Assembly: GCA_965224195.1 (NCBI GenBank)
Contig: OZ245040.1
Location: 512,001 to 576,000, forward strand
Direction: 5' to 3'
Length of the DNA: 64,000 nucleotides
Origin: Nitrosopumilus sp.
Lineage (GTDB): Archaea; Thermoproteota; Nitrososphaeria; Nitrososphaerales; Nitrosopumilaceae
The position numbers and the translations under genes were made by a program. The notes beneath the pieces are model-generated. The model saw nothing but the letters and a program-made list of their open reading frames with translations, was not told where the DNA came from and did not search any database. Positions 12,458 to 64,000 of this stretch are shown here, in pieces. Numbering within the stretch: the stretch's first letter is position 1; every line of letters starts with the position of its first letter.

Positions 12458-13071
12458 GTCTTACTGTTGGTGTATTATCCATTCAAGGGGATGTTCAAGA
12501 AAATATGTTGTCAGCTAAATCTGCAATTGATGAATTAGGACTAGATGGGAATGTTGTTGATGTAAGAACCCCTGAAGAAATCTTTCAGTTAGATGGTTTA
12601 ATTATTCCTGGTGGAGAAAGCACTACAATTGGCCAATTATCTCTAGTAAACGGTTCTCTAAATGTACTAAAAGAAAAAATTCAGAGTGGCATGCCTGTTC
12701 TTGGAATTTGTGCAGGAATGATTATGTTATCAAACACTGCAAATGATAAAATAGTTGGTAAAACTGATCAGCTGCTTTTAGATATTTTGGATATTAAATT
12801 GGAGAGAAATTCATTTGGAAGACAAAAAGAATCTTTTGAATCTGACATTTCCATGGATTCTATTAACATTCCAAAATTTAATGGAGTATTCATCAGAGCA
12901 CCATCTGTATCTGATGTAGGATCTGGTGTAGAAGTTTTATCCAAATTCAATGAACGAATAGTTGCAGTCAAAAAAGGAAATGTGATCGGCACTGCTTTTC
13001 ATCCTGAATTAACTGAAGATACCGCATTGCACAAATATTTCATTAATCTTGTGAACACATCAAAAAATTAA
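12454..13071 (+). CDS. pdxT: Pyridoxal 5'-phosphate synthase glutaminase subunit
   Basis: [37 protein letters not shown]; ATGA-coupled to pdxS. Confidence 0.97.
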
Positions 13072-46133: not shown

Positions 46134-46487
46134 TTATTTTGTAACTGAGCAATACGATGAACTTCCTTCAAAGAATTTTACGCTTGAAAGAGGTATTTTC
46201 CCCTCTAGATTCTCAAAAATCCATGCTGCAATATTTTCGGATGTGGGAAAATCAAACATTTTATCTAAATCATTATGATCTAATTGACCGATAACATTCC
46301 AACAGGTCTTTTTCATTTCAGAAAAATCAAGAAGCATATTTTCTTGATATGTATTTCCTTTTGGAACCACCCCTTCTACTTCAACAACTATTTTCGAAGT
46401 ATGTCCGTGTGGCTGCCCACATTTTGGATGTCCCTTTAAGGTATGTGCAAAATCAATTTCAAATTCTACACCTAGCTTTGTTTTCAT
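46134..46487 (-). CDS. queD: 6-carboxy-5,6,7,8-tetrahydropterin synthase
   Basis: AH.L..HPKCGQPHGH, LDH, PTSENIA. Confidence 0.95.
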   Translation of the reverse strand: MKTKLGVEFEIDFAHTLKGHPKCGQPHGHTSKIVVEVEGVVPKGNTYQENMLLDFSEMKKTCWNVIGQLDHNDLDKMFDFPTSENIAAWIFENLEGKIPLSSVKFFEGSSSYCSVTK

Positions 46488-47491: not shown

Positions 47492-49783
47492 TTGTCAAAA
47501 AATAATGAAATAAGACACCTTGATATTAAAAAATTTACGAACGATTGGAATTCTGGAATGAGTTTTGTTGATTTATCTATAAAATATAATTTGGATTATA
47601 CTGGAAAAGCCAAAAGAATTGGGGAAAAATTAGGCTTGAAAAAACAAAAAAACCTAGACTTTTTTGAACGATTTCTCACAAACCCCAAAAAAACGGATAA
47701 ATTTATCTCAATGTATAATGACGACTCCATCAAAGTTAGAGAAATAACTAAACATTTTGATTTTACAGATAATGGGTATGTTTCAAAATTAGCAAAAAGA
47801 ATTGGAATTCCTGTAAGAGCAGGAGGATATGCAAGTCAAGGTAAATTTGATAAATCTGGGAATGAATTTTCCAAAATGTGGAATGAAAATATAGATAGTC
47901 AAGCAATAATGGAAAAATTGAATATAAGTAATGCCTCTTTACATACTTGGAGAGTTAAACTAGGCTTAAAACCTAGAACTCAAGGAAGAATTTTTCCTAA
48001 CGCAATTAAAAATAAAATTGAATTATTGTTACTAGAAAATTCAGGCGCATTAACATCTAAAGAACTAAAAAAATTACTAAATAAGGATATTCTCAATTTA
48101 ACAGATGCGTGCAAATCAATGAAATTTCAAAGACTGTCTTTGACTTTACATATAACTGGAAGGCGTTCTCGTCAGCCTACGGATTATTTTGGTGACAATA
48201 CTGGTCAAACTATAATATTTTTGAATAACATGTATGATAGTTTAATTCTCAAACTATCAAAAATATTGAGGGAAGGTAATATGTATAAAAATAATTTACT
48301 AAAAAAAGCAGTTTACAAATTCATGATTTCTCGTCTTGCAGAAAATGATATTAAAATTAAAAATAGAGAATCTCAACTTTTTCAAATTCTGTATAACAAA
48401 GAAAAACAAAATGAACTTGAATCTTTTATAAAAGTACAATTGAATAAATATTCAATTAAACAAAAACCCATAAAATCAATTTCAGAAATTAAATCAAATG
48501 ATCCTCTAGTTGATCAAATTATTGAAAATAAGCCAAAATCAATATTTTATGGACGTAAATTTGAATCAGAATTCATATTAAATGAACTAGATTCAGCCTA
48601 TCCAGATCAACAAAAAATACTTGTCCAAGAAATTTTTACACCTTTTAACTTTATTTGTACCTCTTTGAATGATGGATATTTTAATTTAAAAATTACTTCA
48701 AATGAATCATTTTTAATAAGATTCATGCTTCACCAACTGATCAATTCAACTACTCTTAACATATTTCACAGTAAATTAAATGGAAAAAAAGGAATAATAA
48801 TTAATTTTGAATTTATATCCGAATCAGTTCTTAAAACAATCCCTGAAAATATTCAGATTTTTAATAAAAATGATTTATTTTCATTATTAAATTCAGTTGA
48901 ATTTTTACCAATTAAACCCAATTCATTTGCAAAAATTATGTTTGGGGAAAACAAAGATGAGATTGTTTTTTGTAATGATGTTGATTTTAAAACAAATATT
49001 GCAGCAATCAGTGATTCAAATAAAAAAATAGACAATGTTTCGATAAAATTTTTGAAGCATATTAAATTACCAAAAGAAATTTCATTTTCAGATTATTTTA
49101 ATTTCATCAAAAAATTAGACAGAATATCTGTTAATGAAAATATTTCTTCCATGGATGAATGTATTGTAGATGTAACATCAATTAACACTGGATATTGGCC
49201 TATGATTGACTCTAAAGTGGATTCTAACCATACAAAAATTTTACTTCTTCATAATTCTTCTGATCAACGTATTGGTTATGATAACTATACTACTAGTACC
49301 GGATTTTTACGAAATGCTCTAATCAAATGTAATTGTTTATCATGGATTTCTCAAGAAAATCCTATTTTGTGTAAACATTCTGTTGCATTGTTATTTCACA
49401 TGTGGAAAGGAAACATTGCAAAATTTGATTGGCACATTGAAAGGAAAACAGTTGAAGACTTTTTAGATTATGTATCTTTCTTGATAAATTATTCGATTAA
49501 AATAGAGAATTTTTGGTTTCAAAAAATTGATCATGCAAAGGCAAATTGGGATTTAATTCATCATGCAATTTGTAATCTTATTGATGGTAAAATTTTCAAA
49601 ACCCCAAATTATGAGGAATCAGAAAAATCTGAATTGGAAAATTTAATGTTTGAATACAAAAATGAAAATAATAATTTGTTTAATTCTATGACTGAAATAC
49701 ATGCTGATCAAAGAAAAATGATCCGACAATCTTTGGATTATCAATTTAAAGAAAAAATGGAAGAATTAAAAAAATCATCATAA
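47492..49783 (+). CDS. Multidomain protein: tandem HTHs, degenerate REase-like domain, C-terminal SWIM zinc finger
   Basis: Three HTH-like repeats ending (K/R)(L/I)G(L/I); SWIM CNC..LCKHSVALL. Confidence 0.65.
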   Translation: MSKNNEIRHLDIKKFTNDWNSGMSFVDLSIKYNLDYTGKAKRIGEKLGLKKQKNLDFFERFLTNPKKTDKFISMYNDDSIKVREITKHFDFTDNGYVSKLAKRIGIPVRAGGYASQGKFDKSGNEFSKMWNENIDSQAIMEKLNISNASLHTWRVKLGLKPRTQGRIFPNAIKNKIELLLLENSGALTSKELKKLLNKDILNLTDACKSMKFQRLSLTLHITGRRSRQPTDYFGDNTGQTIIFLNNMYDSLILKLSKILREGNMYKNNLLKKAVYKFMISRLAENDIKIKNRESQLFQILYNKEKQNELESFIKVQLNKYSIKQKPIKSISEIKSNDPLVDQIIENKPKSIFYGRKFESEFILNELDSAYPDQQKILVQEIFTPFNFICTSLNDGYFNLKITSNESFLIRFMLHQLINSTTLNIFHSKLNGKKGIIINFEFISESVLKTIPENIQIFNKNDLFSLLNSVEFLPIKPNSFAKIMFGENKDEIVFCNDVDFKTNIAAISDSNKKIDNVSIKFLKHIKLPKEISFSDYFNFIKKLDRISVNENISSMDECIVDVTSINTGYWPMIDSKVDSNHTKILLLHNSSDQRIGYDNYTTSTGFLRNALIKCNCLSWISQENPILCKHSVALLFHMWKGNIAKFDWHIERKTVEDFLDYVSFLINYSIKIENFWFQKIDHAKANWDLIHHAICNLIDGKIFKTPNYEESEKSELENLMFEYKNENNNLFNSMTEIHADQRKMIRQSLDYQFKEKMEELKKSS

Positions 49784-49806: not shown

Positions 49807-52323
49807 ATGCATCTAATTCATAATTTCATATCTATGCCGGTTGAAAAATACGGTTTAAAGTTAATTCCCTTTAAATCTCAAGGTTCAGAATCTGGAAAAT
49901 ATCCATTTGTTCCCTCTGAATCATTTAATAATTTAATATCTGAAATTCAAGAAATTCGTGAAGATAAAGACGCTGGCTCTATCATCTTTAGAGGCCCCCA
50001 AGGTAGTGGTAAAACTGCTACTAGGAATGGAATTTTAAATAATTTTTTACAACAAACCGATGTTGGAATAATTACCGTTAATCTTTCTTCACTTGAATTA
50101 AGAGATTTGACATGGTCAATAGCAAATAATGCCAAAAAACAGAATTTAATTGATGATAAATTTCTTAAAGAAATAGATTATGTTGAAGGGCAAAATATTG
50201 AAAGGCCCAGGTTATTAGAAATAATCATTTCAATTATAGAAAAAATTTTGTCAGTAAAGGAATTTGGTATTTTAATTATTGATGAATTTGATATTATTTC
50301 TCAACCTACTTTTCATGATACAGATAATCAAACAACTTTTCTTCAAAATATTACAAATTTTTTAAATTTGATCAGTGAATCTAAAATGGTACAAAAAAAA
50401 TCGTTTTGCACAATTCTTGCACAAACTGATAAAAGTTCTGAGGATTTTATAACATATGTCTCTAATAGACATAAACCACTTGCTTCTAGATTAAAACGTA
50501 GTGTTGATATAGAATATAATTTGGATGAAACAAAACAAATCATCTTGAACAGATTAGAATCTGAACAAATAGATGGATTTGTAAAACCTGATGGAAATGA
50601 ATTTTTTCCCTTAGATGAAAAAATAATAGAATTTCTTTTTATTGAAATTAATCAATTGACACTAAAGAAAAAAATGACTGCATTTAGAGATGTGGAACAA
50701 ATTTTACATAATTCAATTGTAAAATCTTTGGAAAAAAATTTACCAAAAGTGGATATTAATATTGTTATGGAGATCTTTAATCAGGAAAAAACAAAACTAT
50801 TTGAAATTAAACGAGAAGAACTTCGAATTAACAAAGAAACAATTATTGAGCTTGATAAATTACTCCTTGACAAGGATCACTCTGCAGCAAATAACTTGTA
50901 TCTTGATGGTATTAAAGATGGAATGACTGTTTGGGAATCACAATTATACAAAACTGTTGACTCTAATGGTGCAAGATCAAGATTAATTCCAGATAATGGG
51001 CACAGTTTATTCATTAATAGTATCAGGTTAGATCTTCAATCTAGTTCAAAACATCACAAGTCAATTTTGTGGTATGATGTTTCTAAATTTGAAAACAAAG
51101 AATTCACTGATAAGGATTTTAAAGAAATTAATTTATTTTTAGATGAAAACAAAGATGAAAGAAATGGATGCCAATTTTCAATTTTAACTATATTTTCAGA
51201 TACCCTATTAACAGATGAAATAAAATTAAAAAATGATCAAATTACTTCTATGGATGAAATCTTTATCTGTAACAATATTGTAAAAAAAGCAATCATTGGA
51301 ATAGCAATTTCTAACTCAGCAACTAAGGATGTATCGAATCCTTCAGATGATCGTGAGCAATTTAAGCCTAATTGGAATACACATCTACATAGTGTATGTA
51401 CTGATAAATTAGGAGAAACTCTTCACGATCTTGATAAAGAATTTTCAGATAAAAATAAAGTTCTTGTTCAAATTCTCTTTACAAAATCTGCTATTGGGGA
51501 AACATTCCAAAAAAAGGTTGATCTAAAAAACTTGGCAAGAGGAATTTCTAATTTGAATATTCAAGAAAACAATGTTAATGAAATCATACTATTAGGATTT
51601 TGTAATGAAGAACTACAACCTACCATTCCACGAAATCTGGTTTCACTTAAAAATTTAATCGAATTAGGAAAAACAAGTGATGAAATTTTAACATTTTTCT
51701 CTAAACCTTTTACATTTGGAGCTGCAAAATTATTAAATATTATTGATGATAATGGGAAATTAGTTAATTTTGAGAATCTAAAAAAGGAAATCGAGGATGA
51801 TTTAATTCAAAAAATGAAAGATGTTTTACCCGAGGATACTACAACTTTATCAGTTAATCAAACAATAATTAAATTACTTGTAGACGCATTTGAAAAAATC
51901 GATGAAATAACTAATTATTTAAAAAAAATAATTGTGTTGAGCTATATTCGTGAACAATCTGAAAAATCTTTGGAAGATTTATCTGTAGATTCAACATTCT
52001 CTGAATCTGGTGCTTCCACCACTGAATCTGGTGCTTCCACCACTGAATCTGGTGCTTCCACCACTGAATCTGGTGCTTCCACCACTGAATCTGGTGCTGC
52101 TGATGTTCGCGATACCGCTGTAAATAATGAAAAATCTGAAGAAATAACTCTCGACATGCTTCTAGATGTATGTAATGATGTTCTAAAGGATGGTAAATTA
52201 ACACTCAATGAATTACGCAAAAGAATTAGTATGAAACCACGTTTTGAAGACGAGACTAAATGGGTTACAAAAATTTATGCTTTAATTCGTAGTAGTAAAA
52301 TATCTCTCAGTAAAGGAAATTAA
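49807..52323 (+). CDS. P-loop AAA-type ATPase (DpdH-like position)
   Basis: Walker A GPQGSGKT, Walker B ILIIDEFD, Arg-finger-like LASRL; start possibly ATG 49834. Confidence 0.85.
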   Translation: MHLIHNFISMPVEKYGLKLIPFKSQGSESGKYPFVPSESFNNLISEIQEIREDKDAGSIIFRGPQGSGKTATRNGILNNFLQQTDVGIITVNLSSLELRDLTWSIANNAKKQNLIDDKFLKEIDYVEGQNIERPRLLEIIISIIEKILSVKEFGILIIDEFDIISQPTFHDTDNQTTFLQNITNFLNLISESKMVQKKSFCTILAQTDKSSEDFITYVSNRHKPLASRLKRSVDIEYNLDETKQIILNRLESEQIDGFVKPDGNEFFPLDEKIIEFLFIEINQLTLKKKMTAFRDVEQILHNSIVKSLEKNLPKVDINIVMEIFNQEKTKLFEIKREELRINKETIIELDKLLLDKDHSAANNLYLDGIKDGMTVWESQLYKTVDSNGARSRLIPDNGHSLFINSIRLDLQSSSKHHKSILWYDVSKFENKEFTDKDFKEINLFLDENKDERNGCQFSILTIFSDTLLTDEIKLKNDQITSMDEIFICNNIVKKAIIGIAISNSATKDVSNPSDDREQFKPNWNTHLHSVCTDKLGETLHDLDKEFSDKNKVLVQILFTKSAIGETFQKKVDLKNLARGISNLNIQENNVNEIILLGFCNEELQPTIPRNLVSLKNLIELGKTSDEILTFFSKPFTFGAAKLLNIIDDNGKLVNFENLKKEIEDDLIQKMKDVLPEDTTTLSVNQTIIKLLVDAFEKIDEITNYLKKIIVLSYIREQSEKSLEDLSVDSTFSESGASTTESGASTTESGASTTESGASTTESGAADVRDTAVNNEKSEEITLDMLLDVCNDVLKDGKLTLNELRKRISMKPRFEDETKWVTKIYALIRSSKISLSKGN
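52001..52098 (+). repeat. Perfect 21-bp in-frame tandem repeat (4.7 copies, ESGASTT)
   Basis: CTGAATCTGGTGCTTCCACCA at 52001, 52022, 52043, 52064 and a partial copy at 52085. Confidence 0.95.
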
Positions 52324-52324
52324 A

Positions 52325-53323
52325 ATGCAACTTAATAAAAAAATTATCAAAGCTCCAGCTGTAGATAATCTTAATATTCTTAAAAAAATTATTAAAAGTC
52401 TAGAGTATACCCCTATCCCATTTAGTTATATTGATGAAAGGAATCTTGAATCGCTAGAAAATAAGAAAAAAATTTCTCACCAAGTCCATGAAAGTATTAA
52501 TGAATGGAAAGATAGTCAAGAGATTTCTCATGCAAAAGGATTTTTACAATCTATTGTTTCATTATTAAGATCATTGAATATTATTTCAAATGTAAAAATT
52601 AAAAAAGAATTTTTAGATACACCACTTGGTTTTTCTGGACCAATGCTTAATACATTTTTAACAAAAAGTATTGATGCAGTTATGTTGACAAAAATTGGAT
52701 ATAGTCTTTTAGATTTATTGGAAAAAAATGATATTCAATCTAGAAATACATATGATAATATATTATTCTGGAGATTTTTACATAGTAACATAACACATAA
52801 CTTTCAACGACTTTTTGAAAATTCTGATACTTATACAAAAGGAATTGAAAAAACACTAGAGAAATTTGAAACAGATACTCGTACAAGAGGTATTTTCTTA
52901 AGTTGGATAAATTATTTTGATTTAAAAGGAATTGATGAGACTCATAGTAATTCAATTATTTTGAGCAAAAAAAAAGTTATTAAAAAAATTATTTCATCCA
53001 CTATACTTGAATTAAACACTTTAAAAATTGACATATATTCAATTGAAATACTTTCAAACCATCTTTCTCAACAACTTGATTTGTCTAATACTATCTGTGA
53101 CTTCTTATCTATTTTTGAGATTATTTTAAAACACACAAACTTATCAGATGAACAAAAGAAATCTATATCTGGAACAACATCCTCAAGAATCAGTTCACAC
53201 TTGCCAAATTTTCCTAAAATAAACATGTTAAAAATTCATAGTAGTATACCTATGGATCAAATTTTAGAAAATACTACAGACTCTGAATTTAATTCAGTAT
53301 TGAATTTTGGTGATAATGAGTGA
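52325..53323 (+). CDS. Hypothetical protein, probably multi-winged-helix
   Basis: SLLRSLNII..LTKIG and FLSWINYFDL segments; coupled to both neighbours. Confidence 0.65.
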   Translation: MQLNKKIIKAPAVDNLNILKKIIKSLEYTPIPFSYIDERNLESLENKKKISHQVHESINEWKDSQEISHAKGFLQSIVSLLRSLNIISNVKIKKEFLDTPLGFSGPMLNTFLTKSIDAVMLTKIGYSLLDLLEKNDIQSRNTYDNILFWRFLHSNITHNFQRLFENSDTYTKGIEKTLEKFETDTRTRGIFLSWINYFDLKGIDETHSNSIILSKKKVIKKIISSTILELNTLKIDIYSIEILSNHLSQQLDLSNTICDFLSIFEIILKHTNLSDEQKKSISGTTSSRISSHLPNFPKINMLKIHSSIPMDQILENTTDSEFNSVLNFGDNE

Positions 53324-56010
53324 ATCCCAAGGATATTGTAAAAGATGAAATTTATCGTATAGAAAATTCATTAATTCAACAAAAAATATTTCTTGATAAC
53401 AACAATCAACCAATGTTTATCACGAATGTGCAGATTGCGAAAGGAACTGGATTATCTGAAACAGAAGTCATAGATGTCATAACAGAATTAGCCCAAAATG
53501 AGAAAAATGAATTTATTATTTTTGATAATACTCTCGGTATTTCGGCAGATGAAAATATTCAGTTTTTTGTTAGAACAAGAATATATCATATAATATGGAC
53601 ATTGTATAGATCTGCCAGTAGAACCAGGAGTAATCCGCCTAAATTTAATATTGGTGATTATCAATATTTACGACATGTTAAACGTCGTCCAAAACAATCT
53701 GAAAATTTAGAAGATGTATTTAATGATGAGGAAATCAAAAAGAATTTTGACTATCCAAAAAATGACTTGTTCAATAAGGTTATTGCCCATATTAAAATAA
53801 ATACTAATTTCAAAAAAATTAGTAACTTTCAAAAAAAATCAACTGTTAAAATATTAAAAAATCTTGAATTAAGAAAAAAGCCAAGAGGTATTGTCTTGGT
53901 TGCTGGCACAGGTGCTGGTAAATCATTTGCATACCAATTTCCACTCTTACTTTGGATACTAAATAAAAAATTTAAAAAATTTGATGAATTCCGTAAAGGA
54001 TACATTAAGGAATCTGATTTACATGTTAATTGTACTGGATTACTGATTTTTCCAAGAAACGCTTTAGCACAAGATCAATTTGAATCCATATCCTATCTAA
54101 TTGATATTATTAATGAAGAAATTTGCAAATTCCCTGATGCAGTAGGAAGAAAATTCCTTACAATTAAAAAACCACTTCCTGACTTTCATAGTAATATTAG
54201 TGGTGATTTGAAAAACAAATATGGAAATAACTCTGAAAAAGGTTATCCTGATTTAATTATCACTCATCCCAAATCATTAGAACGTAGACTTATCAATCCA
54301 GATTGTAGTTTTGTGTATAAACAAGGAATAGATTGTGTATTATATGATGAAGTACACTTATGGGATGGAATAGAAGGGGCAGAAATTGCTTCATTAAATG
54401 CACGATTACAAAATTTATTCCAAGAAAAGTCAAATCCGCCGTTATTTGTTGGTATGTCTGCAACAATTGATCAACCTGAATGGCATTGCCAAAAATTATT
54501 TTCTTTGTTGACTGAAAAGAAACCTGAATCCATAATACAAGGAGACGATGATGATACAGTGCCTTTTTCAATTGAACATCATTTAATTCTTAAACCTAGA
54601 AGTGGTCGACCCCCAATAGGTGTTGCAATAGATACAACATCATGCTTGATACATAATCGTAGAAATGGATTATCATTATCACATGATGATGATAATTTCC
54701 CCTCACACATAGATCGAGAAAATAAAGACAAAAGTCTCACTTTTATAGATTCTTTAAATCAAACTGCAAAATTTGCTAACAAATTAAATAATTTTGAATA
54801 TTTTTGGGATGGTCATGCTCAAATAGCACGAACTTCAGGTTCCCAAAGACCATACAGATCATATCTTTATCACTATAGACCCGAGCAACGTCCACCTAAA
54901 GGAGTTCCAAACAATAAATGGACCGCCAATCATGATTGTAATGACTGTGTAAATCGAACTAGTCCAGAAATTTTTACATGTCCAAGTTATGCTCGCGGTG
55001 AATGTTGGTATTATTCTTCAGATGATGCAAATCAATTTGCAAATACCCCTTATGGAAATTGGAAACAATTAGTTCGAGGAGACAGACTAACAGTTCCAAG
55101 AGACAATATTCGTTCAATACGAGTTTCAAGTTTAGAAAACAAAAAAATTAAAAATAAATATGATTATTTTTTGTTTAAAGATAACATATGGATACCTGAT
55201 GGTAAAGTTCCTGCTTCTGTAGATATGGTTTCTGATATTGATAATATCGTGTCAACTTCCACTCTAGAAGTAGGGGTTGACTTCAAAAAGATCAAAGAAA
55301 TTATACAAGTTGGAGACATTCGATCTCCTTCATCATATAAACAAAAAGCTGGTAGAGGAGCTCGTGAAGGAAATAGTGAGGATGGGTTATTTGTAATGAC
55401 TGTTATTAATGACTCTTCCTTAGCATATTATCATTTTAAACACTTTAGTAGATTAGTGAAATCTAGTCTAGATCCACTAAAACTTGAAACAACAAATCCC
55501 AATATCATAAGATCTAATTGCTTCTTTTCAATTTTTGATTTTATGGCATTAAATAAAATTAATTTATTTAAAATTGTACGTTTAGAGGCTACAGAAATAG
55601 ATTTGGAATATGAAAAAGCAATAAAATTACTTGATGATTCTAAATTGGAAAAATATGTTGCAAGATTTCTTGCTAAATTTAACAAATCAGAAAGTAGTAT
55701 TATCCAAAAAACCATTAAAGATGTACGAGATTTTCTAGAAATACTATCAACAAAAAGAGAAGTAATTATTAATGATGTGAAAATACAACATACTCTACAC
55801 GAATGGTTGATACAATCTGTTAATAGTCTAAATACTCTACAAGAAGTTAAAAAACAATTAGGTATTGATACACTTCAAAAACAAGAAGATGCAATAGGCG
55901 ATATCACAAAGTATATGGATGAGTTAGAAACATCCTATCAAAAACAATTTCCTGATGATGATTTAATTACAAAAAAATTACATGAATTGAGGAGAGAGAT
56001 ATTTGAGTAA
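53320..56010 (+). CDS. SF2 DEAH helicase (DpdJ-N / DrmA-like)
   Basis: Q motif NFQ, AGTGAGKS, FPRNALAQDQ, DEVH, GMSATI, STSTLEVGVD, QKAGRGAR. Confidence 0.9.
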   Translation: MNPKDIVKDEIYRIENSLIQQKIFLDNNNQPMFITNVQIAKGTGLSETEVIDVITELAQNEKNEFIIFDNTLGISADENIQFFVRTRIYHIIWTLYRSASRTRSNPPKFNIGDYQYLRHVKRRPKQSENLEDVFNDEEIKKNFDYPKNDLFNKVIAHIKINTNFKKISNFQKKSTVKILKNLELRKKPRGIVLVAGTGAGKSFAYQFPLLLWILNKKFKKFDEFRKGYIKESDLHVNCTGLLIFPRNALAQDQFESISYLIDIINEEICKFPDAVGRKFLTIKKPLPDFHSNISGDLKNKYGNNSEKGYPDLIITHPKSLERRLINPDCSFVYKQGIDCVLYDEVHLWDGIEGAEIASLNARLQNLFQEKSNPPLFVGMSATIDQPEWHCQKLFSLLTEKKPESIIQGDDDDTVPFSIEHHLILKPRSGRPPIGVAIDTTSCLIHNRRNGLSLSHDDDNFPSHIDRENKDKSLTFIDSLNQTAKFANKLNNFEYFWDGHAQIARTSGSQRPYRSYLYHYRPEQRPPKGVPNNKWTANHDCNDCVNRTSPEIFTCPSYARGECWYYSSDDANQFANTPYGNWKQLVRGDRLTVPRDNIRSIRVSSLENKKIKNKYDYFLFKDNIWIPDGKVPASVDMVSDIDNIVSTSTLEVGVDFKKIKEIIQVGDIRSPSSYKQKAGRGAREGNSEDGLFVMTVINDSSLAYYHFKHFSRLVKSSLDPLKLETTNPNIIRSNCFFSIFDFMALNKINLFKIVRLEATEIDLEYEKAIKLLDDSKLEKYVARFLAKFNKSESSIIQKTIKDVRDFLEILSTKREVIINDVKIQHTLHEWLIQSVNSLNTLQEVKKQLGIDTLQKQEDAIGDITKYMDELETSYQKQFPDDDLITKKLHELRREIFE

Positions 56011-58237
56011 AATAGATGAAATAGAAAAAATTCTAGAAAATAGGTTAAAAGAAGTAGAATTTAAAAAAAGCAACTTGATTGTTAATCCATTCACTAATCT
56101 TAAAAACTCCTTAAAAGAATTTGAAGAAAGTAAAAAAATTTCTAATAAAAGTGGGATTGATATTTTCAGATTGGAATTATATTTATCTGAATTATATGAA
56201 GACTTGAACAATAGAAAGGGAAATCAAAAATCCGATGAAACATCGTTTAATGTCTTCACAAAATTACCACTAAAACCTTATGCCAAATCATCCATCGGTT
56301 CTACGGTTACGTTATCTAGAGGGACAAATTATTCTGAGGAGGTATTGCCATCAAAAACTATTTTTACACAACTTTTACCGGGTCAAGTAACACATAGGTG
56401 GGATTTCCATTCACAATGGAGAGTTCCATGTGGAAAATATTCTGAAGATTTTATTAGTCATCTTAAAGGAATTCATAAAATATCTTCAACTCCATTTATC
56501 CAACATGAAGGTAAAAATGTCCACACATTAGAAAAAATAAATGTTATGACGTTACAAGGGGTTACCAATAACTCATATGTAGATGAGAATGGTGAAGAAC
56601 AGAAAAGACAAGGAGGAATTCCTGTTTGTCCAGAATGTTTGTCAATAAATATTTCTGGGGGCAGAGTGGCAGAACAGTGTATTCATGTAAGAGATGGTAA
56701 CAGTAATCCTATAGGACGTTCCTCATTATATGCATCTCCAATTTTAGAAAATATTGAAATTAGTGGTGAGAGAGAAATATCAAAACCAAATCATTTCTCT
56801 TTCCCGTTAAATGAAATATTTGAAAAAATAGAGTTTTTAGAAAATTGTCAAATCATTACTGTTGCTACAGGTTTTAGTAGAGAAATAGGAGGTGTCTCGA
56901 TACAAGTTCAATATGATCCATATATCGGATATAAGACAGATACAAACGGATTATTATTTGTAGTAAAAGAGATTCCAGGTGATTTTGTTAAACAAGTATT
57001 AAATGATGATTTTCTTGTGAGGGATGTCATAATAGATATTCTACAAGATAAAATTCTTCATATTTTAAATAATTCGAATAAGAGTTCTTTTGAATTAGAA
57101 GTATGGCTTTCTGGACTAATCAAAGCGTTAAGACTTGATTCAATTTCGACCACCTTTGATTATTTGAACACACTTAATCAATTACATTCTGCTTCATTTG
57201 ATGATGATTTTTTAAGTTGTGTTCAAACTGAATTAAGTTATTATGAATACGAACAATTTGGCATAGATCCAACAAGAATTGCAGTAATGTCTAACGAAAT
57301 AAAAAATATCAGTATTTCAGAAGATGATTTAAAATTAAAAATTAAAAGATTGCTTAAAAATTCATTAACTTACTTAATACATCAAACAGGATTGGTTACA
57401 TCAGGTTCAACTGATCAAGATATTGGATTTATATATCCAAAAGAAAATACAAACGAAATTTTACTTTTTGATGATATGTCTGGTGGAAATGGTGCTTCAA
57501 AATTAATTAATGATTATTTGGTTGGTGTAAGCTCTTCATATTCTCCAAAGCATGGAGCACGACCCAAATATTTTCAAGAAACATTTTTTGAATTATTACA
57601 GCCATGTCCACAAGGTACTGCTGATAGAAGTTTTTTCCAAGATTTGGTTAAAATCTTTACAAATTTTTCTAACAATAATTTAATTAGTAAAAAATTTGAA
57701 GAAATTCAAGAACAACAAAATGCTTCACAAAATGAATTTGCGCAAATAAAAACTTCTGGTATTCAAAATATGTTTCCTCATTCAATTGGTAAAAGAGGAT
57801 TAATACAAAATGGAATAACAAACACAACAGAAAGTAAGAAAATTCAAGAAATTGCAAACATCTGTATCCACGGTTGTTTTGAATGTGGTCTTTTAAAGGG
57901 GAATTATTCTGGAATAAAAGGTCCTAAACTTGAGAAATTTTATGTTAGTAAATATTTACTTGATAAATACTTCAAATTTGTTACACAAAAAATTCGAATT
58001 GATATTGATACCAATACATCTGAAATAGAAAAAATTTTCAAAGAACACAAAATGATAATTATTTCACAAAAAATTGGAAATGCTAACAACATCTATCAAG
58101 TGATGTCAAAAATGAATTCATTAATTGGTGAAGAATTCGATAAAAAATTGGTGAAATTTTCAGGACTGTGGTTTGATTGTCCAATTTCAAATTCTCCAGA
58201 GGTTGAATTATCTATTTTATTGAGCGTGATTAAATGA
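56003..58237 (+). CDS. DUF1998/MrfA-like Zn-binding helicase partner (DpdJ-C / DrmB-like)
   Basis: EILLFDDMSGGNGAS followed by PC..ICIHGCFEC; internal CPEC; GAGGAG upstream of the TTG start. Confidence 0.75.
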   Translation: MSKIDEIEKILENRLKEVEFKKSNLIVNPFTNLKNSLKEFEESKKISNKSGIDIFRLELYLSELYEDLNNRKGNQKSDETSFNVFTKLPLKPYAKSSIGSTVTLSRGTNYSEEVLPSKTIFTQLLPGQVTHRWDFHSQWRVPCGKYSEDFISHLKGIHKISSTPFIQHEGKNVHTLEKINVMTLQGVTNNSYVDENGEEQKRQGGIPVCPECLSINISGGRVAEQCIHVRDGNSNPIGRSSLYASPILENIEISGEREISKPNHFSFPLNEIFEKIEFLENCQIITVATGFSREIGGVSIQVQYDPYIGYKTDTNGLLFVVKEIPGDFVKQVLNDDFLVRDVIIDILQDKILHILNNSNKSSFELEVWLSGLIKALRLDSISTTFDYLNTLNQLHSASFDDDFLSCVQTELSYYEYEQFGIDPTRIAVMSNEIKNISISEDDLKLKIKRLLKNSLTYLIHQTGLVTSGSTDQDIGFIYPKENTNEILLFDDMSGGNGASKLINDYLVGVSSSYSPKHGARPKYFQETFFELLQPCPQGTADRSFFQDLVKIFTNFSNNNLISKKFEEIQEQQNASQNEFAQIKTSGIQNMFPHSIGKRGLIQNGITNTTESKKIQEIANICIHGCFECGLLKGNYSGIKGPKLEKFYVSKYLLDKYFKFVTQKIRIDIDTNTSEIEKIFKEHKMIIISQKIGNANNIYQVMSKMNSLIGEEFDKKLVKFSGLWFDCPISNSPEVELSILLSVIK

Positions 58238-58788
58238 CACATGTTGATGAACTAAATTATGCAATGGTGGATTTTGATATATTAGCTTCAGAATTAATAA
58301 AATCTATTTTTAATAAAAATGATGATAATGAAGTTATAATAATTTCACCGTGGATGGTAGATTATGCATTACCAATGACCTGGCCCTCTTTTAGTAGTAA
58401 TTTTATTAATATTACAGATATGCAAACAACAAGTGATATTCTAAGATTACTATTGCAGAATGGTGTTTTAGTAACGATCATGTCACATTCAACTGCACAA
58501 TTAGAAAAAGATGGATGGGGTAATGTTGCTATTAGAAATGCAGTAGATTTTTCTAATAAAATAAAAGATGATGGTGGAAAAATAATTCATAATCAAATAA
58601 ATCACGGTAAGCTAACATATACTAGTGAACATGCATTAGCTGGTTCTGGTAATTATACAAATAAGGGTAGGAATCCAATATTGCAAAATAACATAGGTGA
58701 ATTAATTGTTAAAAGTAAAGATGAAAAAAGTCATGGATTAAAACATAGATGGGCTTTAGATAGACTCAAAGAAGGAAAATCCATATAA
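58234..58788 (+). CDS. PLD-family nuclease (DpdK / DrmC-like)
   Basis: IIISPWMVD, NHGKLTY..ALAGSGNYTNKG..N..E; ATGA-coupled. Confidence 0.85.
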   Translation: MTHVDELNYAMVDFDILASELIKSIFNKNDDNEVIIISPWMVDYALPMTWPSFSSNFINITDMQTTSDILRLLLQNGVLVTIMSHSTAQLEKDGWGNVAIRNAVDFSNKIKDDGGKIIHNQINHGKLTYTSEHALAGSGNYTNKGRNPILQNNIGELIVKSKDEKSHGLKHRWALDRLKEGKSI

Positions 58789-60051
58789 TTATTTCCCAAA
58801 ATAATACAAACCTAATTTTCTATCAATAGAGTTACACCATGTAGCCAATCCCAATAATAACAAAACATCTTCTTTGTCTTTCATTGAATATTTTTTTGAT
58901 TTTTTCAAATGAATTACAATATCCTCAAAGTTTTGAGGAGTATTTGACAATAGTTTTAACATGTACTTGTATTCTGGAATTTTTTCTTTTAATTTTTTAT
59001 TCAACTTTGTTTTAGCTGATCTTTTCTCCAATGATTTTAAGAACTCTTTACCTTCATTACTAAGATAGATAACACCATCACGTTTAGTTGTAAATTTTAA
59101 CAATTCTCCTAATTTTGTATAACTGCCATTTTCTGTTTCATATCTGGAGTGTAGTAGATTTTTTATGGCCATTCCATCTTTAACTGATTCTAGGAATTTG
59201 GGGAATTTTGTAACTGATATTTGAGGAGGTGTGAAATTACCTGTTACAGGACTTGCTTTTTTGTATTCACTGTTTTTTTTAGCGCCTTCTTCTGCTGCAC
59301 TAAATCCCTTATTTGAAATAATGAATGTAAAAGTACCTCGTCCTCTGTATGATAAATCCACTCTCAGAGGTAAATCATCACTTAAACCTAGTTTGACTTC
59401 TCCGCACTGAGTAACCATTTCAGTGACTGTTTTCAAATAATCCAATATGGTCCAAGTTTTCACATCTTTTTTTGGTATTTTATTTTTAAAAGACTCAAAC
59501 ACTTGACCTGAAAGATCTATTGTTTTGTGATAAGAAAATCCACCTTCTTCAGAACCTACAACAAATTTCCCATCCTCGATTCCAAAGAATATCTCTCTAG
59601 ACACTGATGATGCTTCATTAATTATCTCCAAGAATTCTTTGGATGGAATTGTGATTTCAGCATCATAATCTAAATTATTTGGTTCGGGTAGGTTGAATTC
59701 TTCATCCTCCAACCATTCTAATTCATAACGTGTTTTTTCATTATTTATAAAATTTAATGCAATGTTTTTTTTCCGAATATCAAGATTCAGTTTTTTTTCT
59801 TTTTTAATTTTTGTAATTACTTGTTTGAGCTTACCAATTTCAGCCTCTCTTGAAAATTTTTCAGAATCCCAGTTAAATCCATTAAAAAAGGTAGGTGATA
59901 ATTTAATATCCACATAACAAAAATCGTGAGGATCTATACTTCTAATCCTTACTCCGTTTTTACTAATATCAAATCTGGCTACATCTGTAAATCTTGTAAT
60001 GCCACGAAAAATGGCTTTGAATAATGCTAAATCCTCTATTCTTAATTCCAT
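58789..60051 (-). CDS. Divergent PCNA sliding clamp fused to a C-terminal putative winged-helix domain
   Basis: aa 1-247: FKAIF..VRIRSIDPHDFCYVDIKL, LPEPNNLDYDAEITIPSKEFLEII, LDYLK, LGLSDDLPLRVDL..GTFTFII; about 150 further aa with YLSNEGKEF wing. Confidence 0.85.
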   Translation of the reverse strand: MELRIEDLALFKAIFRGITRFTDVARFDISKNGVRIRSIDPHDFCYVDIKLSPTFFNGFNWDSEKFSREAEIGKLKQVITKIKKEKKLNLDIRKKNIALNFINNEKTRYELEWLEDEEFNLPEPNNLDYDAEITIPSKEFLEIINEASSVSREIFFGIEDGKFVVGSEEGGFSYHKTIDLSGQVFESFKNKIPKKDVKTWTILDYLKTVTEMVTQCGEVKLGLSDDLPLRVDLSYRGRGTFTFIISNKGFSAAEEGAKKNSEYKKASPVTGNFTPPQISVTKFPKFLESVKDGMAIKNLLHSRYETENGSYTKLGELLKFTTKRDGVIYLSNEGKEFLKSLEKRSAKTKLNKKLKEKIPEYKYMLKLLSNTPQNFEDIVIHLKKSKKYSMKDKEDVLLLLGLATWCNSIDRKLGLYYFGK

Positions 60052-61101
60052 TTATTTTCTACCAAATAATATGTTTGAAATACTATTGTATTTTTTCTTT
60101 AATTTAGCGTATTTCCATAAATAATCTAGAGAAGATGTTTTGTAAATTTCATTTAGATATTCCTCATATGCTTCTTGTCCTTTTTTGATTAGTTTTTTTG
60201 CTATTTTTATTTCATTTTTCATTACATGATCATTATGAATTGCTCTTGCTTTCCAGTCATCCCACAATGCATCTTGATTCATCCTACAAATTGGACAATC
60301 ACATTCTTGGAGTAATTTCATATCTTTTCTTTTTAATGAAACACCACCTCCAAATTTGGCGGTGTTATTCCCAACATATCTCTCAGCCGTACCTGGCAAT
60401 ACAATTTGACCAAATGCTGCTTTTCTTCTATATCCTGATGAATCTGTACTTTCTATTCCTAAATAATATCCTAAATGCAATGAAATTGGCGATGAACCTA
60501 AACCCATAATGTGAACATTGTAATCAGTATTTTTTTTTACACTTTCTACAGTATATGATAACATATCAATCAAATTTTTATTTGGTTGTCTATCTCCAAA
60601 AAATCCCGTATAGTTTGTAAATTCAGGATTAACAATACTTCCGACTGCCAAATAATCTGAATCTCCATATTTTTGAATCCATTTCAAATTTTTCATTAAT
60701 GATTTTTTATTCCAAGCATGAATTGAAGGGACTAGTTTTCCATCCAAATTTGTAGATGATTGCCAATATCGAATATTTTTTGCAGTGTCCTTCCATCTTT
60801 TTTGCATTGTTACCGCAGACATTCCATTTTTGAATGGATAGTCAAATGGAATTGTTTTATCAGGTTCTAATGTCTCTTGAATATCGATAATTTTTTCTAA
60901 ATCTAATTCCATATCTTGCATGTTTGCAGTATATGCGCCATTATCCAAAAATAATTCGCCCACCCTGTATGGTAGTTTTGGTTCATCTTTTCTGTAATAA
61001 TTAATAGCAGAATCCATGACGAAGTCTTTTCTGCGATCTGTTTTTACTGGGGCCTGTGGTTGCTCACCCATCCATAATAAGATCTCCTCCGTTCTGGACA
61101 T
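60052..61101 (-). CDS. TGT-family guanine transglycosylase (DpdA-like, no PUA domain)
   Basis: FLDNGAY, IPFDYP, VHIMGLG, STDSSGY, Zn motif CDCPIC..AIHN; 349 aa, catalytic barrel only. Confidence 0.88.
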   Translation of the reverse strand: MSRTEEILLWMGEQPQAPVKTDRRKDFVMDSAINYYRKDEPKLPYRVGELFLDNGAYTANMQDMELDLEKIIDIQETLEPDKTIPFDYPFKNGMSAVTMQKRWKDTAKNIRYWQSSTNLDGKLVPSIHAWNKKSLMKNLKWIQKYGDSDYLAVGSIVNPEFTNYTGFFGDRQPNKNLIDMLSYTVESVKKNTDYNVHIMGLGSSPISLHLGYYLGIESTDSSGYRRKAAFGQIVLPGTAERYVGNNTAKFGGGVSLKRKDMKLLQECDCPICRMNQDALWDDWKARAIHNDHVMKNEIKIAKKLIKKGQEAYEEYLNEIYKTSSLDYLWKYAKLKKKYNSISNILFGRK

Positions 61102-61129
61102 ACCAAAAAGGTATGAGTATCAGTATTTT

Positions 61130-62126
61130 TACTTTGTCGAACAAATAACAATCTGATCAACTTTATTTCATAACAATAGCTTTGGATCTCACATTCTGAC
61201 CATTCTCATGGTTAACTGGAATCAATACAATGAGAAACTAGTCAGAAGAGGCGAGATCATAATGTCATTTGATGCTATTGATAACTGGCATAAAGAATTA
61301 GAGGTCATGAATCACAACAAAAGAGGTAGAAAGTTTGACTATCCTGATTCATTCATGAAATTATTGGGTTATGCCAGAGTATATTTTGGATTACCATTCA
61401 GACAAACAGAAGGAATGATACGTGCATATTGTAATAGAATTCCAGCAGTTCCTGATTTCACATCAATCCACAAGAGAATAAACAAGCTTGACATCAAAAT
61501 TGATGATTCCATTGGAGATAATAATGAAATCATTTTAGCAATTGACAGCACAGGAATCAAGGTTGCAAACAGGGGCGAATGGATGAGACAGAAATGGCAC
61601 ATGAGGAGAGGGTTTCTAAAAATCCATGTTGGTGCCGATGCCAGAACCAAGAAAATAGTTTCACTCAAAATAACAGATGATTCATCCCATGATGCTGCAC
61701 ATCTGCCAGAACTGGTACAGCAGGCATCACAGAAAGGAAAGGAAATGTAATCAAGGTTCTAGCTGATGGCGCATATGATTCAGAAAATAATTTCTCATAT
61801 CTATATCACAATACAAATGCACTGCCTGCAATCAAAGTTAGAAAGACATCATCCATCAAAACAAAATGTTATCCGAGAAAGAAATCAGTCTTGGCTCAAA
61901 TGTATAATTTGGATTTGTGGAAGCGCAGCGTCAGCTATGGGGACAGGTGGATTGCAGAGTGTGTGTTTTCAACATTCAAAAGGATGCTTGGTGAGTATGT
62001 CATGGCTCACAAAAGAAAATACATGATAAAGGAATTGGAATTAAAAGTCGAGCTGTACAATCTGCTTGCAGGTGCTTGAGGGAATGAAATTAGAAACTAG
62101 TTAGAAATGATTTGTTCGACAGAGTA
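61130..62126 (+). mobile_element. IS5-family (ISH1-like) insertion sequence
   Basis: 17-bp TIRs TACT(T/C)TGTCGAACAAAT; 8-bp target duplication AGTATTTT at 61122-61129 and 62127-62134. Confidence 0.93.
61208..62079 (+). pseudogene. IS5 transposase, frameshifted by a short duplication near 61735
   Basis: IDSTGIK..KIH, then in another frame VLADGAYDS..RWIAECVFSTFKR. Confidence 0.85.
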
Positions 62127-62215
62127 AGTATTTTAACTTGAGGAAAATTCTCCATCATGTAATCATGTAAAATTTATTTTAAATTTTGATAAAATGTCAT
62201 TATCAAACAATGTAC

Positions 62216-62963
62216 TTAGGCCTCTTTTTGAGATTTTTGATTATCATATAGTTTATAGCTATAATCTAGAATGAATTTTCTGGGCTCTCTAAATGGGCCT
62301 CTAAATTTTACATCAATCACCTCTTTTTCTTCTTTTGTACTAGCACTCATTTCTAACACTCCATTTGCAAACCAAAGAAAATACTCTTCATCGTTTTTTT
62401 CCATGGTTCCTCTTCTCAAAAGATATAATGATTGAATTTTTCTTCTTTGTTCAAACCCCATATTATGGCGTAAGTATTGTGTTGCAATTTGAAAATCAGT
62501 AAATGCTAAAAAGTCAGATATTGCATCGTATGTTACTCGGATGCCATTACAACCTTTCTTTTCCAATTCACTCAATGCATTTTCATATTTTTTGTTAATT
62601 TCATGTGGATCGTATGAATTAGCATAGTGTAAATTGGATTCTTTCAATTTTTTGTTCCATGATTCTTTTTCAGAATCTAGAGAATAACAATCCACAAAAA
62701 TGATGTTATCAAAATTTATATTATTTTCTAAAATCTTTGTATTATTAGGATCCTCATTCTTCATTCGCTTCAGCTCTTCTTCCAACATGTCTTTGATTTC
62801 CCCAGCTGGTCGAGTAAATGTAAAATAAATTGCTCCTGATCCGTAGGATAATCCAGATAAAATAAATCTTAAAAGAATTTTCCAAGGCCGTGTTGTTTCA
62901 TCTGCTAAAATGATTATTGGAAAATAAATTTCCTTATCTTTCTTTGATAATTCTTGATTGATT
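62216..62963 (-). pseudogene. RecA/KaiC-fold ATPase-like domain protein, 5' part cut off by an IS
   Basis: Frame open up to the IS end: ..GAIYFTFTRP..IIFVDCYS..IRVTYDAISDF..FANGVLEM; no Walker A visible. Confidence 0.6.
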
Positions 62964-64000
62964 AGACCTCTTGCATAATTAGAAACAAAATACTATCTTT
63001 CATTCTTGACAGATTCTAATTTTATGGAATTGCCATGAATTCTTCTCCCCATTTTATCTTGAAATTAATAATTCCACAAACAATGTCACTTGTTCCATCA
63101 TATCTGCACAATCTATTCCTAAATGTTTCTGAATTGATTCTAAATTTCTTTATCCTGCTAATTGCATGTTCTACTTTTATTCTGATTTTACTTTGTAACT
63201 TGTTCCAATCCTTTTGAGATGCGGCCAACTCTTTTCCTTTTTTTCTCTTGTATGGTAAGATGCTAGTTTGTTTTGGGAAATCTTTCTCAACACCCAAATA
63301 TCCAAGATCATAAAAGACCATTAAATCTTCAGATAGAGCAGGATATTTTATTTTCAGTATTGCGTAATCGTTTCTTCGTCCAGGGGAGTGTGGAGGTTTG
63401 TGAATAATCTCACCATTCAGGTTAATCGTAATTTGATTTTTGATTGTATGTCTTTTCTTTTTGCCTGAATAGTGAGTTTTTCTCTTCTTCTTATTTTTTG
63501 GTCTTGGGATGGGCTGTTCTGTTCCATCAGTAATTGCAATCAGTTCAGGAAAGAATTCCTGCAGTTGCTGTATGTCGTTAATCTTTTTTGAATCAGCATA
63601 CAGTTTGACAGGAATTGGAATTACACATTTCACTGCAGACTCTATTTTTGCAATGTCTCTACACACTGTTGATGAATCAACTCTAAACAGATATTCCAGT
63701 AAATCATAGCTTGTATAGCAACGATAGTAAATTAGCAGCATCAGAATCCTATCCCTTGCTGAAAGTTTGAATGGTCTTCCAGCTCCAATGTTTCTTTTTC
63801 TGTCTCTTTTTGAGAGTCTTTTTCTCTCTGTAATCTTGTATTGTTTCTGTATCTCTTTTGTCAAAAAATCAAACTGTGTTGCAGTTATTCCTGTAAATCT
63901 CAAGAATTGTTTTGGTTTTCTTGCTAGTTTTGTATAATTTAGCATGAAATGAAATGGTTTGTACTTAGCTTTGGATCTTGCTGTGAATGAATTTGGATTG
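62964..64000 (-). mobile_element. IS5-family element related to the 24943-26010 copy (other end outside the window)
   Basis: End AGACCTCTTGCATAATTA resembles the TIR of the other copy. Confidence 0.85.
63022..63945 (-). CDS. IS5-family DDE transposase, apparently intact
   Basis: TDGTEQPIPRP, HYSGKKKRHT, YDLGYLG, RIKVEHAISRIKKF. Confidence 0.92.
   Translation of the reverse strand: MLNYTKLARKPKQFLRFTGITATQFDFLTKEIQKQYKITERKRLSKRDRKRNIGAGRPFKLSARDRILMLLIYYRCYTSYDLLEYLFRVDSSTVCRDIAKIESAVKCVIPIPVKLYADSKKINDIQQLQEFFPELIAITDGTEQPIPRPKNKKKRKTHYSGKKKRHTIKNQITINLNGEIIHKPPHSPGRRNDYAILKIKYPALSEDLMVFYDLGYLGVEKDFPKQTSILPYKRKKGKELAASQKDWNKLQSKIRIKVEHAISRIKKFRINSETFRNRLCRYDGTSDIVCGIINFKIKWGEEFMAIP

Follow-up and report, generated by a model that had tools for sequence, protein, structure and literature searches.

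7-Deazaguanine marks in DNA are known from bacteria, where they belong to the Dpd system, from phages and from archaeal viruses. Here we describe a stretch of 64,000 nucleotides from Nitrosopumilus sp. (assembly GCA_965224195.1, contig OZ245040.1, positions 512,001 to 576,000; hereafter the window, in whose numbering positions are given unless a contig or locus is named), in which a short open reading frame (ORF) related to the tRNA-guanine transglycosylases (TGT) lies directly next to a gene for a PCNA-like protein. The TGT-like ORF (60052..61101, minus strand, 349 aa) encodes a predicted DNA guanine/7-deazaguanine transglycosylase, as judged from its Pfam TGT match, its structural model and trees. 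We consider it probable that this short paralogue is an archaeal DpdA-type DNA transglycosylase, acting as the marking enzyme of a Dpd-like 7-deazaguanine restriction-modification system carried on a low-GC island. The window, like some 40 related loci that belong to Nitrososphaerota, Bathyarchaeia and Asgard archaea, points to a cellular archaeal 7-deazaguanine marking system, and our literature search found no such cellular archaeal system described.

In regard to the bacterial counterpart, the available text of PMC10164549 reports that DpdA needs DpdB, a ParB-like ATPase, with a modelled closed dimer that encircles a 20-Å tunnel fit for duplex DNA. The Dpd system of Salmonella Montevideo (DpdA/DpdB/DpdC together with DpdD-K; 7UI4) and the window both have a short TGT-fold enzyme devoid of RNA-binding domains and holding an invariant trio of Asp residues. 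Both are also linked to the preQ0 pathway and to a helicase/phospholipase D (PLD) module of restriction type, with DpdJ and DpdK as the best matches in the window, and each transglycosylase relies on another protein that associates with DNA, a dependence that is presumed for the window by comparison. On the other hand, the window protein scores below the DpdA models, neither DpdB nor DpdC is present among the scanned island ORFs, the partner combines a PCNA fold with a winged-helix-like part, the DpdJ-like function is split over several genes, and the host is an archaeon. What is new here is the accessory subunit: where bacteria use the ParB-like ATPase DpdB, there would be a private PCNA that carries a domain for reading DNA. 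A full-text literature search found no TGT/DpdA enzyme with a PCNA partner, while the supplementary DpdA lists of PMC6884629 and PMC10516641 may include archaeal cellular members. In the available part of 10.1101/2025.02.15.638363, PCNA and TGT are listed as separate viral genes.

Viral systems offer a second comparison. In the Sulfolobus virus STSV2, STSV2_15 was described as DpdA and STSV2_16 as ArcS2, and dCDG was reported in STSV-2 DNA (10.1101/2023.04.13.536721, available text); the two genes adjoin in the STSV2 genome. The DpdA proteins of STSV1 and STSV2 are, like the window protein, short archaeal-type TGTs, and those branches of the window's family that have a short clamp-like gene or no clamp occur beside DUF5591 (ArcS2-type) genes, as in STSV2. 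However, STSV2 DpdA has 291 aa and neither a clamp partner nor a tail, and the subtype found in the window, which is chromosomal and accompanied by a restriction-type module, has a DUF5591 neighbour in only 1 of 42 loci. A third comparison is the HerA/FtsK-centred, BREX-related system of PMC12839542, for which the available text proposes that a TGT homologue marks self DNA and DpdB and DpdC are lacking. HerA-type ATPases likewise accompany loci L008, L010 and L065 of the window's family. Unlike the window, that system holds PglZ, an ORC/Cdc6-like ATPase, a STAND NTPase and a GNAT protein, and the terms PCNA and sliding clamp are absent from the main text of that paper.

A short TGT paralogue and its PCNA-like partner

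The TGT-like ORF is a genuine gene, as 172 homologues were found at E≤0.001 among 1206 candidates and an AlphaFold model based on a 32-row alignment reached a mean predicted local distance difference test (pLDDT) of 85 and a pTM of 0.84. The ORF list shows the motifs LDNGAY (D53), TDSSGY (D220) and CDCPIC (C267-x-C269-x-x-C272), followed by H289, so both catalytic Asp motifs and the CxCxxC..H signature named in the original prediction, which had been made from the sequence alone, are confirmed there and in the alignments. The family alignment of 32 sequences shows no variation at D53, D87, H128, D220, C267, C269, C272 and H289; in a 106-sequence alignment with distant relatives the first four remain invariant and the three Cys residues and H289 are at least 90% conserved. 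Foldseek against the PDB assigned the model to the TGT fold with probability 1.0 (PDB TGTs at E of about 1e-9 and TM of about 0.6), and the best viral match in BFVD was a protein of Sulfolobales Beppu rod-shaped virus 1 (E 1.8e-11, TM 0.54). The protein belongs to the TGT superfamily (PF01702), with a TIM-barrel fold, catalytic Asp residues and a Cys3His zinc site, all shared with arcTGT/TgtA (1iq8).

The prediction of a missing C-terminal PUA/C2 extension also held. TGT is the sole domain found in the Pfam scan of the ORF (55.3 bits at a cut-off of 26.3, covering profile columns 110-353), with no PUA or other C-terminal domain, and the protein has 349 aa compared to 509 aa in the arcTGT of the same host. 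Relative to arcTGT, the protein lacks the C-terminal domains together with PUA, differs over its N-terminal 47 residues and shares 21% identity with the enzyme of its own genome. According to the available text of PMC10164549, three active-site Asp residues are invariant across TGT and DpdA, Salmonella DpdA loses exchange activity on substitution to Asp95Ala or Asp256Ala, and the base is read by a His and an Asp. The active-site residues of the TGT-like protein would correspond to those of Salmonella DpdA by their pattern in the alignment, a matching made without structural superposition.

The host genome (2.07 Mb, 99.85% complete) contains a separate TGT match of 260 bits (Pfam TGT) in a 512-aa open frame, translated as the 509-aa arcTGT. 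Compared with it, the TGT-like ORF is 21% identical over the catalytic core and scores 54-55 bits in the same Pfam model, while the NCBIfam arcTGT equivalog (TIGR00432) gives 33.3 bits (E 1.7e-8), far under its cut-off of 350. An exhaustive profile search returned 519 representatives at E≤0.001, where the family proper forms about 8 clusters (491 to about 190 bits), followed by a broad set of 340-400-aa proteins with at most 160 bits. In the 106-sequence alignment, composed of the TGT-like protein and the full-length matches, 65 relatives match a PADLOC DpdA model and 62 the NCBIfam DpdA model, none of them shown to exceed the 200-bit cut-off, and nearly all aligned sequences also match arcTGT weakly.

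A maximum likelihood tree of 69 rows was built by a quick search under LG+C20. In it, a starred branch with a support of 99 unites arcTGT with bacterial TGT and leaves out the TGT-like family, which itself is likewise starred at 99. It joins STSV2 viral DpdA and the clade of L015-L020 with a Shimodaira-Hasegawa-like approximate likelihood ratio test (SH-aLRT) value of 87. The approximately unbiased (AU) test rejected a single clade of the family and arcTGT (delta lnL 72.3, p 0.0014). Clustering inside housekeeping arcTGT, a check that had been set beforehand, was thus not observed, and the arcTGT score, the separate host arcTGT, the tree and the AU test together rule out the TGT-like ORF as the housekeeping enzyme.

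A search of the phage collection with the TGT-like protein gave 5 records only, at 29% identity and E 3e-14, and every one of them is from STSV1, STSV2 or STSV4, which infect Sulfolobus. L018 matched 230 phage records by tblastn, including Escherichia and Pseudomonas siphophages and Mycobacterium phage Rosebush; its relatives are TGT-like genes in Queuovirinae-like phages and in Rosebush. The L015-L020 sequences had been considered as candidates for bacterial DpdA (bDpdA), a label that was dropped at about 19 bits on NF041059; as L018 matched phage DpdA-type genes, the clade was relabelled phage-type. Among PDB sequences, the family profile matched only arcTGT 1iq8 (E 2.7e-4), which is not discriminating.

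On the minus strand, the TAA stop codon of the TGT-like gene (60054-60052) abuts the ATG (60051-60049) of a 420-aa PCNA-like ORF, and the predicted 0-bp gap is therefore exact. Residues 1-247 of this partner (59311..60051, minus strand) form a PCNA-fold domain of a second, divergent PCNA, recognised by PCNA_N (28.4 bits) and PCNA_C (25.2 bits), each over its cut-off, and by Foldseek (TM 0.89 and root-mean-square deviation 2.4 Å to S. solfataricus PCNA). The best NCBIfam sliding-clamp model gave 99 bits compared to a cut-off of 284, and because the protein falls below all sliding-clamp cut-offs of that collection we regard it as a divergent paralogue. A housekeeping PCNA of 248 aa is encoded elsewhere in the host genome and is 24% identical to it, which rules out the neighbour as the replicative PCNA. 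The original prediction was right in recognising a PCNA-type clamp, but it missed that the neighbour is a dedicated paralogue with a winged-helix-like extension and not the replicative protein. PADLOC gave no match for either protein of the pair.

The model of the PCNA-like protein (mean pLDDT 81.5) has the PCNA fold at residues of about 1-245, a disordered linker at 250-276 with pLDDT below 50, and beyond it, at about 277-420, helices and a two-strand wing. Based on this model, the C-terminal extension (residues 277-420; 58792..59223, minus strand) is helical, winged-helix-like and probably DNA-binding. It has a weak Pfam AAA_assoc_C match, and its Atlas neighbours (AAA_assoc_C, DUF7226 and double winged-helix clusters, 0.89-0.92) can serve as leads only. 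The extension is conserved across a 35-row alignment, in which near-invariant family-specific motifs occur. One of them is LPEP at 121-124, which, if PCNA structures are taken as a guide, would be part of the interdomain connecting loop.

Conservation of the pair and the island around it

The pair recurs in contigs of Nitrososphaerota, Bathyarchaeia and Asgard archaea. In contigs taken from one genome per species, relatives of the TGT-like gene were found in 10 archaeal loci at 43-87% identity, and in 4 of these (Nitrosopumilus, Bathyarchaeia, Thaumarchaeota and a Freyarchaeota metagenome-assembled genome) a full-length 420-aa PCNA-like homologue lies directly downstream. A metagenome scan added 80 loci, and 91 loci in all were searched with local profiles. 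Wherever the enzyme carried the strict tail motif described below and was followed by at least 300 nt, the next gene was PCNA-like (39 of 39 loci, with gaps of -66 to +152 nt); 9 loci were too short to judge and 6 truncated genes were dropped. On the other hand, the 37 loci lacking the strict motif comprise 14 with a clamp-like gene (10 short, of about 250 aa, and 4 long or odd) and 23 without one.

The neighbourhood is conserved along with the pair. In the Nitrosopumilus island, a convergent five-gene module (49807..58788, plus strand) encodes an 838-aa AAA ATPase, a 332-aa protein, an 896-aa helicase, a 744-aa protein and a 184-aa PLD protein. The best matches of the DEAD/DEAH helicase are to DpdJ (PADLOC 1.8e-31; NCBIfam 1.9e-29), the PLD protein matches DpdK (PADLOC 1.6e-4), the AAA domains of the ATPase were recognised by Pfam, and the 332-aa and 744-aa proteins have no family match. 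We predict that these five genes form the restriction half of the system. All five are present in the Thaumarchaeota locus, where they are collinear with the TGT-PCNA pair. Across the 42 loci with a long clamp, 24 of which span at least 8 kb, the ATPase was found in 22, the 332-aa protein in 20, the helicase in 19, the 744-aa protein in 18 and the PLD protein in 6, and gene order is conserved across archaea in either a convergent or a collinear arrangement. The context was missing from the original prediction, which did not see that the pair is probably one half, the marking one, of a defence-type system with several genes that is conserved.

Furthermore, the island carries genes of 7-deazaguanine supply. 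Its queE (45453-46133, plus strand; Radical_SAM/Fer4_12) and queD (46134-46487, minus strand; PTPS) are both second copies: another QueE, 35% identical, adjoins QueC about 440 kb away (C1:117289-119585), and another QueD lies at C1:1962246-1962650. There is no queC on the island itself, with the host QueC lying elsewhere. Among relatives, QueC and/or a QueT transporter stand beside the pair in L006, L008, L065 and L070. The pair is thus genomically linked to genes of 7-deazaguanine synthesis and transport and to restriction-type genes, as is the case for the DpdA functional class. The island stands out by its low GC content (26-31% at 44-60 kb compared to 43% at 18-22 kb).

The branches without the long clamp are organised differently. 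They carry HerA-type ATPases rather than the five-gene module, and DUF5591 (ArcS2-type) genes occur in 6 of 11 short-clamp and 14 of 26 clamp-less loci as opposed to the single case among the 42 long-clamp loci. As a separate observation, sister branches (L009, L010, L011, L012, L083-L086, L093, L118 and others) have a short 250-aa clamp-like gene with weak Hus1/Rad9/PCNA matches, or no clamp, and are accompanied by stand-alone DUF5591, a protein of about 1170 aa and a HerA-type ATPase. The enzyme tail is conserved within each branch and differs between them.

It is mainly the linkage of the pair to 7-deazaguanine supply genes and to nuclease/helicase modules that leads us to read the enzyme as a DNA writer, a reading which is well supported by comparative evidence. 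The original prediction had proposed a DNA-acting transglycosylase docked on the neighbouring clamp, and its first part is well supported by the context, owing to the PCNA partner, the DpdJ-like helicase, the DpdK-like PLD protein, the extra queD/queE, the QueC/QueT genes near relatives and the DpdA-type viral relatives.

The enzyme tail as a candidate docking peptide

The tail of the TGT-like protein reads KKKYNSISNILFGRK and includes the motif Y338-N-S-I341-S342-N-I-L345-F346 (60064..60090, minus strand, as read from the codons), which is a candidate clamp-docking peptide. PCNA-interacting protein (PIP) boxes follow the consensus Q-x-x-[LIM]-x-x-[FY]-[FY]. As had been predicted, the tail is PIP-like and lacks the Gln: it is a short, near-C-terminal peptide after a basic run, with the hydrophobic-x-x-hydrophobic-hydrophobic spacing retained. 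Unlike in PIP-box clients, however, a Tyr takes the Gln position, a Ser is invariant, (V/I/A)-L is followed by Phe instead of there being two aromatic residues, two to six residues come after the motif, and the putative receptor is a dedicated PCNA paralogue. The tail as a canonical PIP box was rejected on the missing Gln, the invariant Ser and the aliphatic residue where aromatics are expected.

Tails of the long-clamp type share the consensus K-L-(R/K)-(K/R)-(K/R)-Y-x-R-I-S-x-(V/I/A)-L-F, after which 0-6 residues follow. Ile and Ser are invariant in all 36 distinct tails, with L, I or M at the position next but two, Phe next in 28 of the 36 and Tyr at -3 in 33. All 40 of 40 loci with the long clamp have the relaxed core I-S-x-x-hydrophobic, compared with 0 of 32 that have a short clamp or none. 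Where the long clamp gene occurs, the tail is conserved well beyond chance, in line with the second check proposed for it. Enzymes paired with short clamps have conserved tails of their own (K-Y-P/A/E-P-I/L types). In a tree built without the tail columns, the motif and the long clamp each change about 3 times, together. In the AlphaFold model, the tail terminates a long C-terminal helix, with a pLDDT of 46 over the last nine residues.

Complex prediction with the two whole proteins gave a score of 0.53, with 0.01 for the best of 3 controls and no interface given; at least 33% of contacts are common to the runs, and the pLDDT of the partner is at least 78. In the calibration of this score, whose counts are only rough here because custom alignments were used in the prediction, 58 of 80 solved complexes passed the mark, as did 2 of 110 mismatched pairs, and scores of 0.60 or less account for only 7 of the 80 solved complexes and for both passing mismatches. 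We consider it likely that the TGT-like and PCNA-like proteins bind each other. The odds that the tail is the docking peptide are roughly even, and docking on the clamp through it is plausible. The second part of the original claim therefore stays an inference, as the complex score is weak and came without an interface, the peptide is not a canonical PIP box, the independent changes are few and binding is predicted only.

In the same host, Fen1 (L140, 1189-2208, minus strand; G000:C1 near 658 kb) ends in a PIP-type peptide, ..NLDQWF, and thereby offers a point of comparison, as an example of the peptides that the organism's replicative PCNA probably reads.

Proposed mechanism, alternatives and minor features

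In regard to the mechanism, homology with TGT and DpdA suggests that Asp220 would attack C1' of the target deoxyguanosine, leading to an intermediate that joins enzyme and DNA covalently, with Asp53 as the general acid/base, Asp87 and His128 reading the base and the Cys3His site holding a structural zinc. Guanine would then be swapped for a 7-deazaguanine base, most likely preQ0, with CDG as the alternative. The preference for preQ0 comes from the island queD/queE together with the host QueC, the QueC/QueT genes beside relatives, the rarity of DUF5591 in long-clamp loci (1 of 42) and the lack of DpdC, and the base could be made by the extra QueD and QueE of the island with the QueC of the host. 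The dedicated PCNA with its winged-helix-like domain could hold the enzyme on duplex DNA and perhaps help to choose sites, with the tail Y-x-R-I-S-x-hydrophobic-L-F as the best candidate for the docking peptide. The convergent operon of AAA ATPase, 332-aa protein, DpdJ-like helicase, 744-aa protein and DpdK-like PLD nuclease would attack DNA that lacks the mark.

The PCNA-type clamp may in this way replace DpdB, the ATPase required by bacterial DpdA, which is ParB-like and probably forms a ring. A PCNA-type ring in the genomic and functional slot of DpdB suggests a non-homologous replacement, clamp for clamp. Related to this, we tentatively propose a more specific scenario, which we regard as possible and still rather doubtful: archaea recruited a PCNA paralogue fused to a double winged-helix DNA reader, displacing DpdB, and the enzyme docks on it by a private, Gln-less PIP-like peptide that the replicative PCNA ignores. 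If true, no earlier case would exist of a sliding clamp that serves only DNA modification related to immunity, and the pair would be an example of clamp-peptide pairs insulated from the replisome. More generally, if the marking system were confirmed, it would bear on the question why DNA transglycosylases need a DNA-encircling helper, on the question whether PCNA paralogues can act beyond replication and repair, and on possible epigenetic self/non-self discrimination in abundant marine ammonia oxidisers, which may carry this marker. The reagents are directly testable: two small proteins and a 9-residue peptide.

Several points weigh against the marking enzyme and its clamp as we propose them. 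A PCNA ring normally needs a loader, and no clamp loader is encoded at the locus, nor is there an ATPase within the TGT-PCNA marking pair. A PADLOC scan of 11 island ORFs gave no match to either DpdB or DpdC. The TGT-like protein itself matches no PADLOC DpdA model and is absent from the NCBIfam DpdA matches at E≤0.01, and the fold searches in PDB and BFVD do not tell DpdA from tRNA TGTs. The branch that joins the family to phage and viral DpdA has a SH-aLRT of only 87, in a quick tree with long branches, and the sequences in that tree did not include canonical bDpdA or DpdA2-4 references; a search for canonical bacterial DpdA (NF041059) in 301 genomes from a single bacterial class had 0 matches, and the control genomes also gave none. 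As for the tail, the independent-pairs test had only 1 tail/clamp contrast on starred branches and was without power, and with so few independent changes shared descent could explain the co-occurrence of tail and clamp. This one contrast is the L082/L085/L087 clade, in which the tail motif is lost, L082 and L087 have no downstream clamp and L085 has a weak, divergent clamp-like match. The complex score lies in a band in which, by the description of the tool, wrong predictions outnumber right ones except for pairs that were already likely to bind. Furthermore, an insertion sequence (IS) element with a DDE_Tnp_1_5 transposase (61122..62135) has inserted 21-28 nt upstream of where the TGT gene starts, so that the pair may be separated from its promoter, in which case this copy could be poorly expressed. 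The element has 18-nt terminal inverted repeats (61129-61146 and 62110-62127) and an 8-bp target duplication, AGTATTTT; both ORFs of the pair are intact despite it. Finally, the data presented here show the fold, the catalytic and zinc residues, the paralogy, the place in the tree, the conservation of the neighbourhood and the joint occurrence of tail and clamp; the DNA substrate, the inserted base, clamp binding, the role of the tail and the restriction function are all inferred.

It is also conceivable, though unlikely, that the TGT-PCNA pair belongs to a mobile element or provirus and modifies the element's own DNA during replication to evade host restriction, with the helicase and PLD genes as unrelated cargo. 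The low GC content, the flanking IS elements and an integrase-like ORF would fit such an origin, as would the phage-collection matches, which are viral DpdA genes only, the best BFVD match in a Sulfolobales virus and the finding that archaeal viruses often carry PCNA genes (PMC11529989, available text). However, viral contigs gave only 11 matches, one of them close (L125, 50% over 101 residues) and the other 10 at 23-29%, and Pfam scans of the island ORFs detected no capsid, terminase or polymerase genes. The pair is moreover tied to the same ATPase, helicase and PLD genes in conserved order across distant archaea, and its PCNA always has the extra winged-helix-like domain and comes directly after the TGT gene.

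Another explanation, which we consider improbable, makes the TGT-like protein the effector: riding on the clamp, it would remove or exchange bases in invading DNA, for example in 7-deazaguanine-modified viral DNA. The TGT mechanism does begin with base excision via a covalent intermediate (PMC10164549, available text), DNA glycosylases directed against 7-deazaguanine phage DNA act in defence according to the available part of 10.1101/2025.10.29.685425, and genes resembling nucleoside 2-deoxyribosyltransferase (NDT) occur upstream of the pair (62216-62788) and near relatives. Nevertheless, the repeated linkage to 7-deazaguanine supply, by queD/queE here and by QueC and QueT beside relatives, fits a base-inserting enzyme, all residues of the exchange reaction are conserved, and a separate nuclease-type module is already present. 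That the protein is a second RNA-acting TGT, for another tRNA position or another RNA, with PCNA adjacent by coincidence, is very improbable: its best named models are those of tRNA enzymes (arcTGT 1.7e-8; PDB 1iq8, E 2.7e-4) and its relatives are annotated at source as queuine/archaeosine tRNA-ribosyltransferases, yet it has no PUA/C2 RNA-binding domains, scores far under the equivalog cut-offs, falls outside the tRNA-TGT clade in the tree and the AU test, and has defence-type neighbours and a clamp adjacency that, at 39 of 39 motif-bearing loci, is not a coincidence.

Next to the DNA-marking pair and its module, the window and related loci hold several other features. The 190-aa ORF at 62216-62788 (minus strand), upstream of the pair, has no Pfam or PADLOC match, and local iterative searches tie it to an ORF in L050 (3531-4715). 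NDT-like matches were found in 6 loci including the window, with base salvage or glycosylase activity as possibilities, and the Freyarchaeota locus L008 has a clear nucleoside 2-deoxyribosyltransferase after the pair (12438-12860, Pfam 2.2e-23). A DDE_Tnp_4 transposase gene is located at 63022-63945. At the island edge beside queE lies a 280-aa ORF (44444-45286, minus strand) with a weak PIN-domain match (E 0.0016). The plus-strand operon is headed by a 763-aa ORF (47492-49783, plus strand) with a weak SWIM zinc-finger match (E 0.0057), which has no homologue in the other 90 loci and seems specific to this island. Two proteins contain short tandem repeats: the 838-aa ATPase (49807-52323, plus strand), otherwise non-repetitive, has four tandem 7-residue units ESGASTT near its C-terminus, and an ORF beside RNase HII (L141, 497-1480, plus strand) starts with five tandem 16-residue acidic units.

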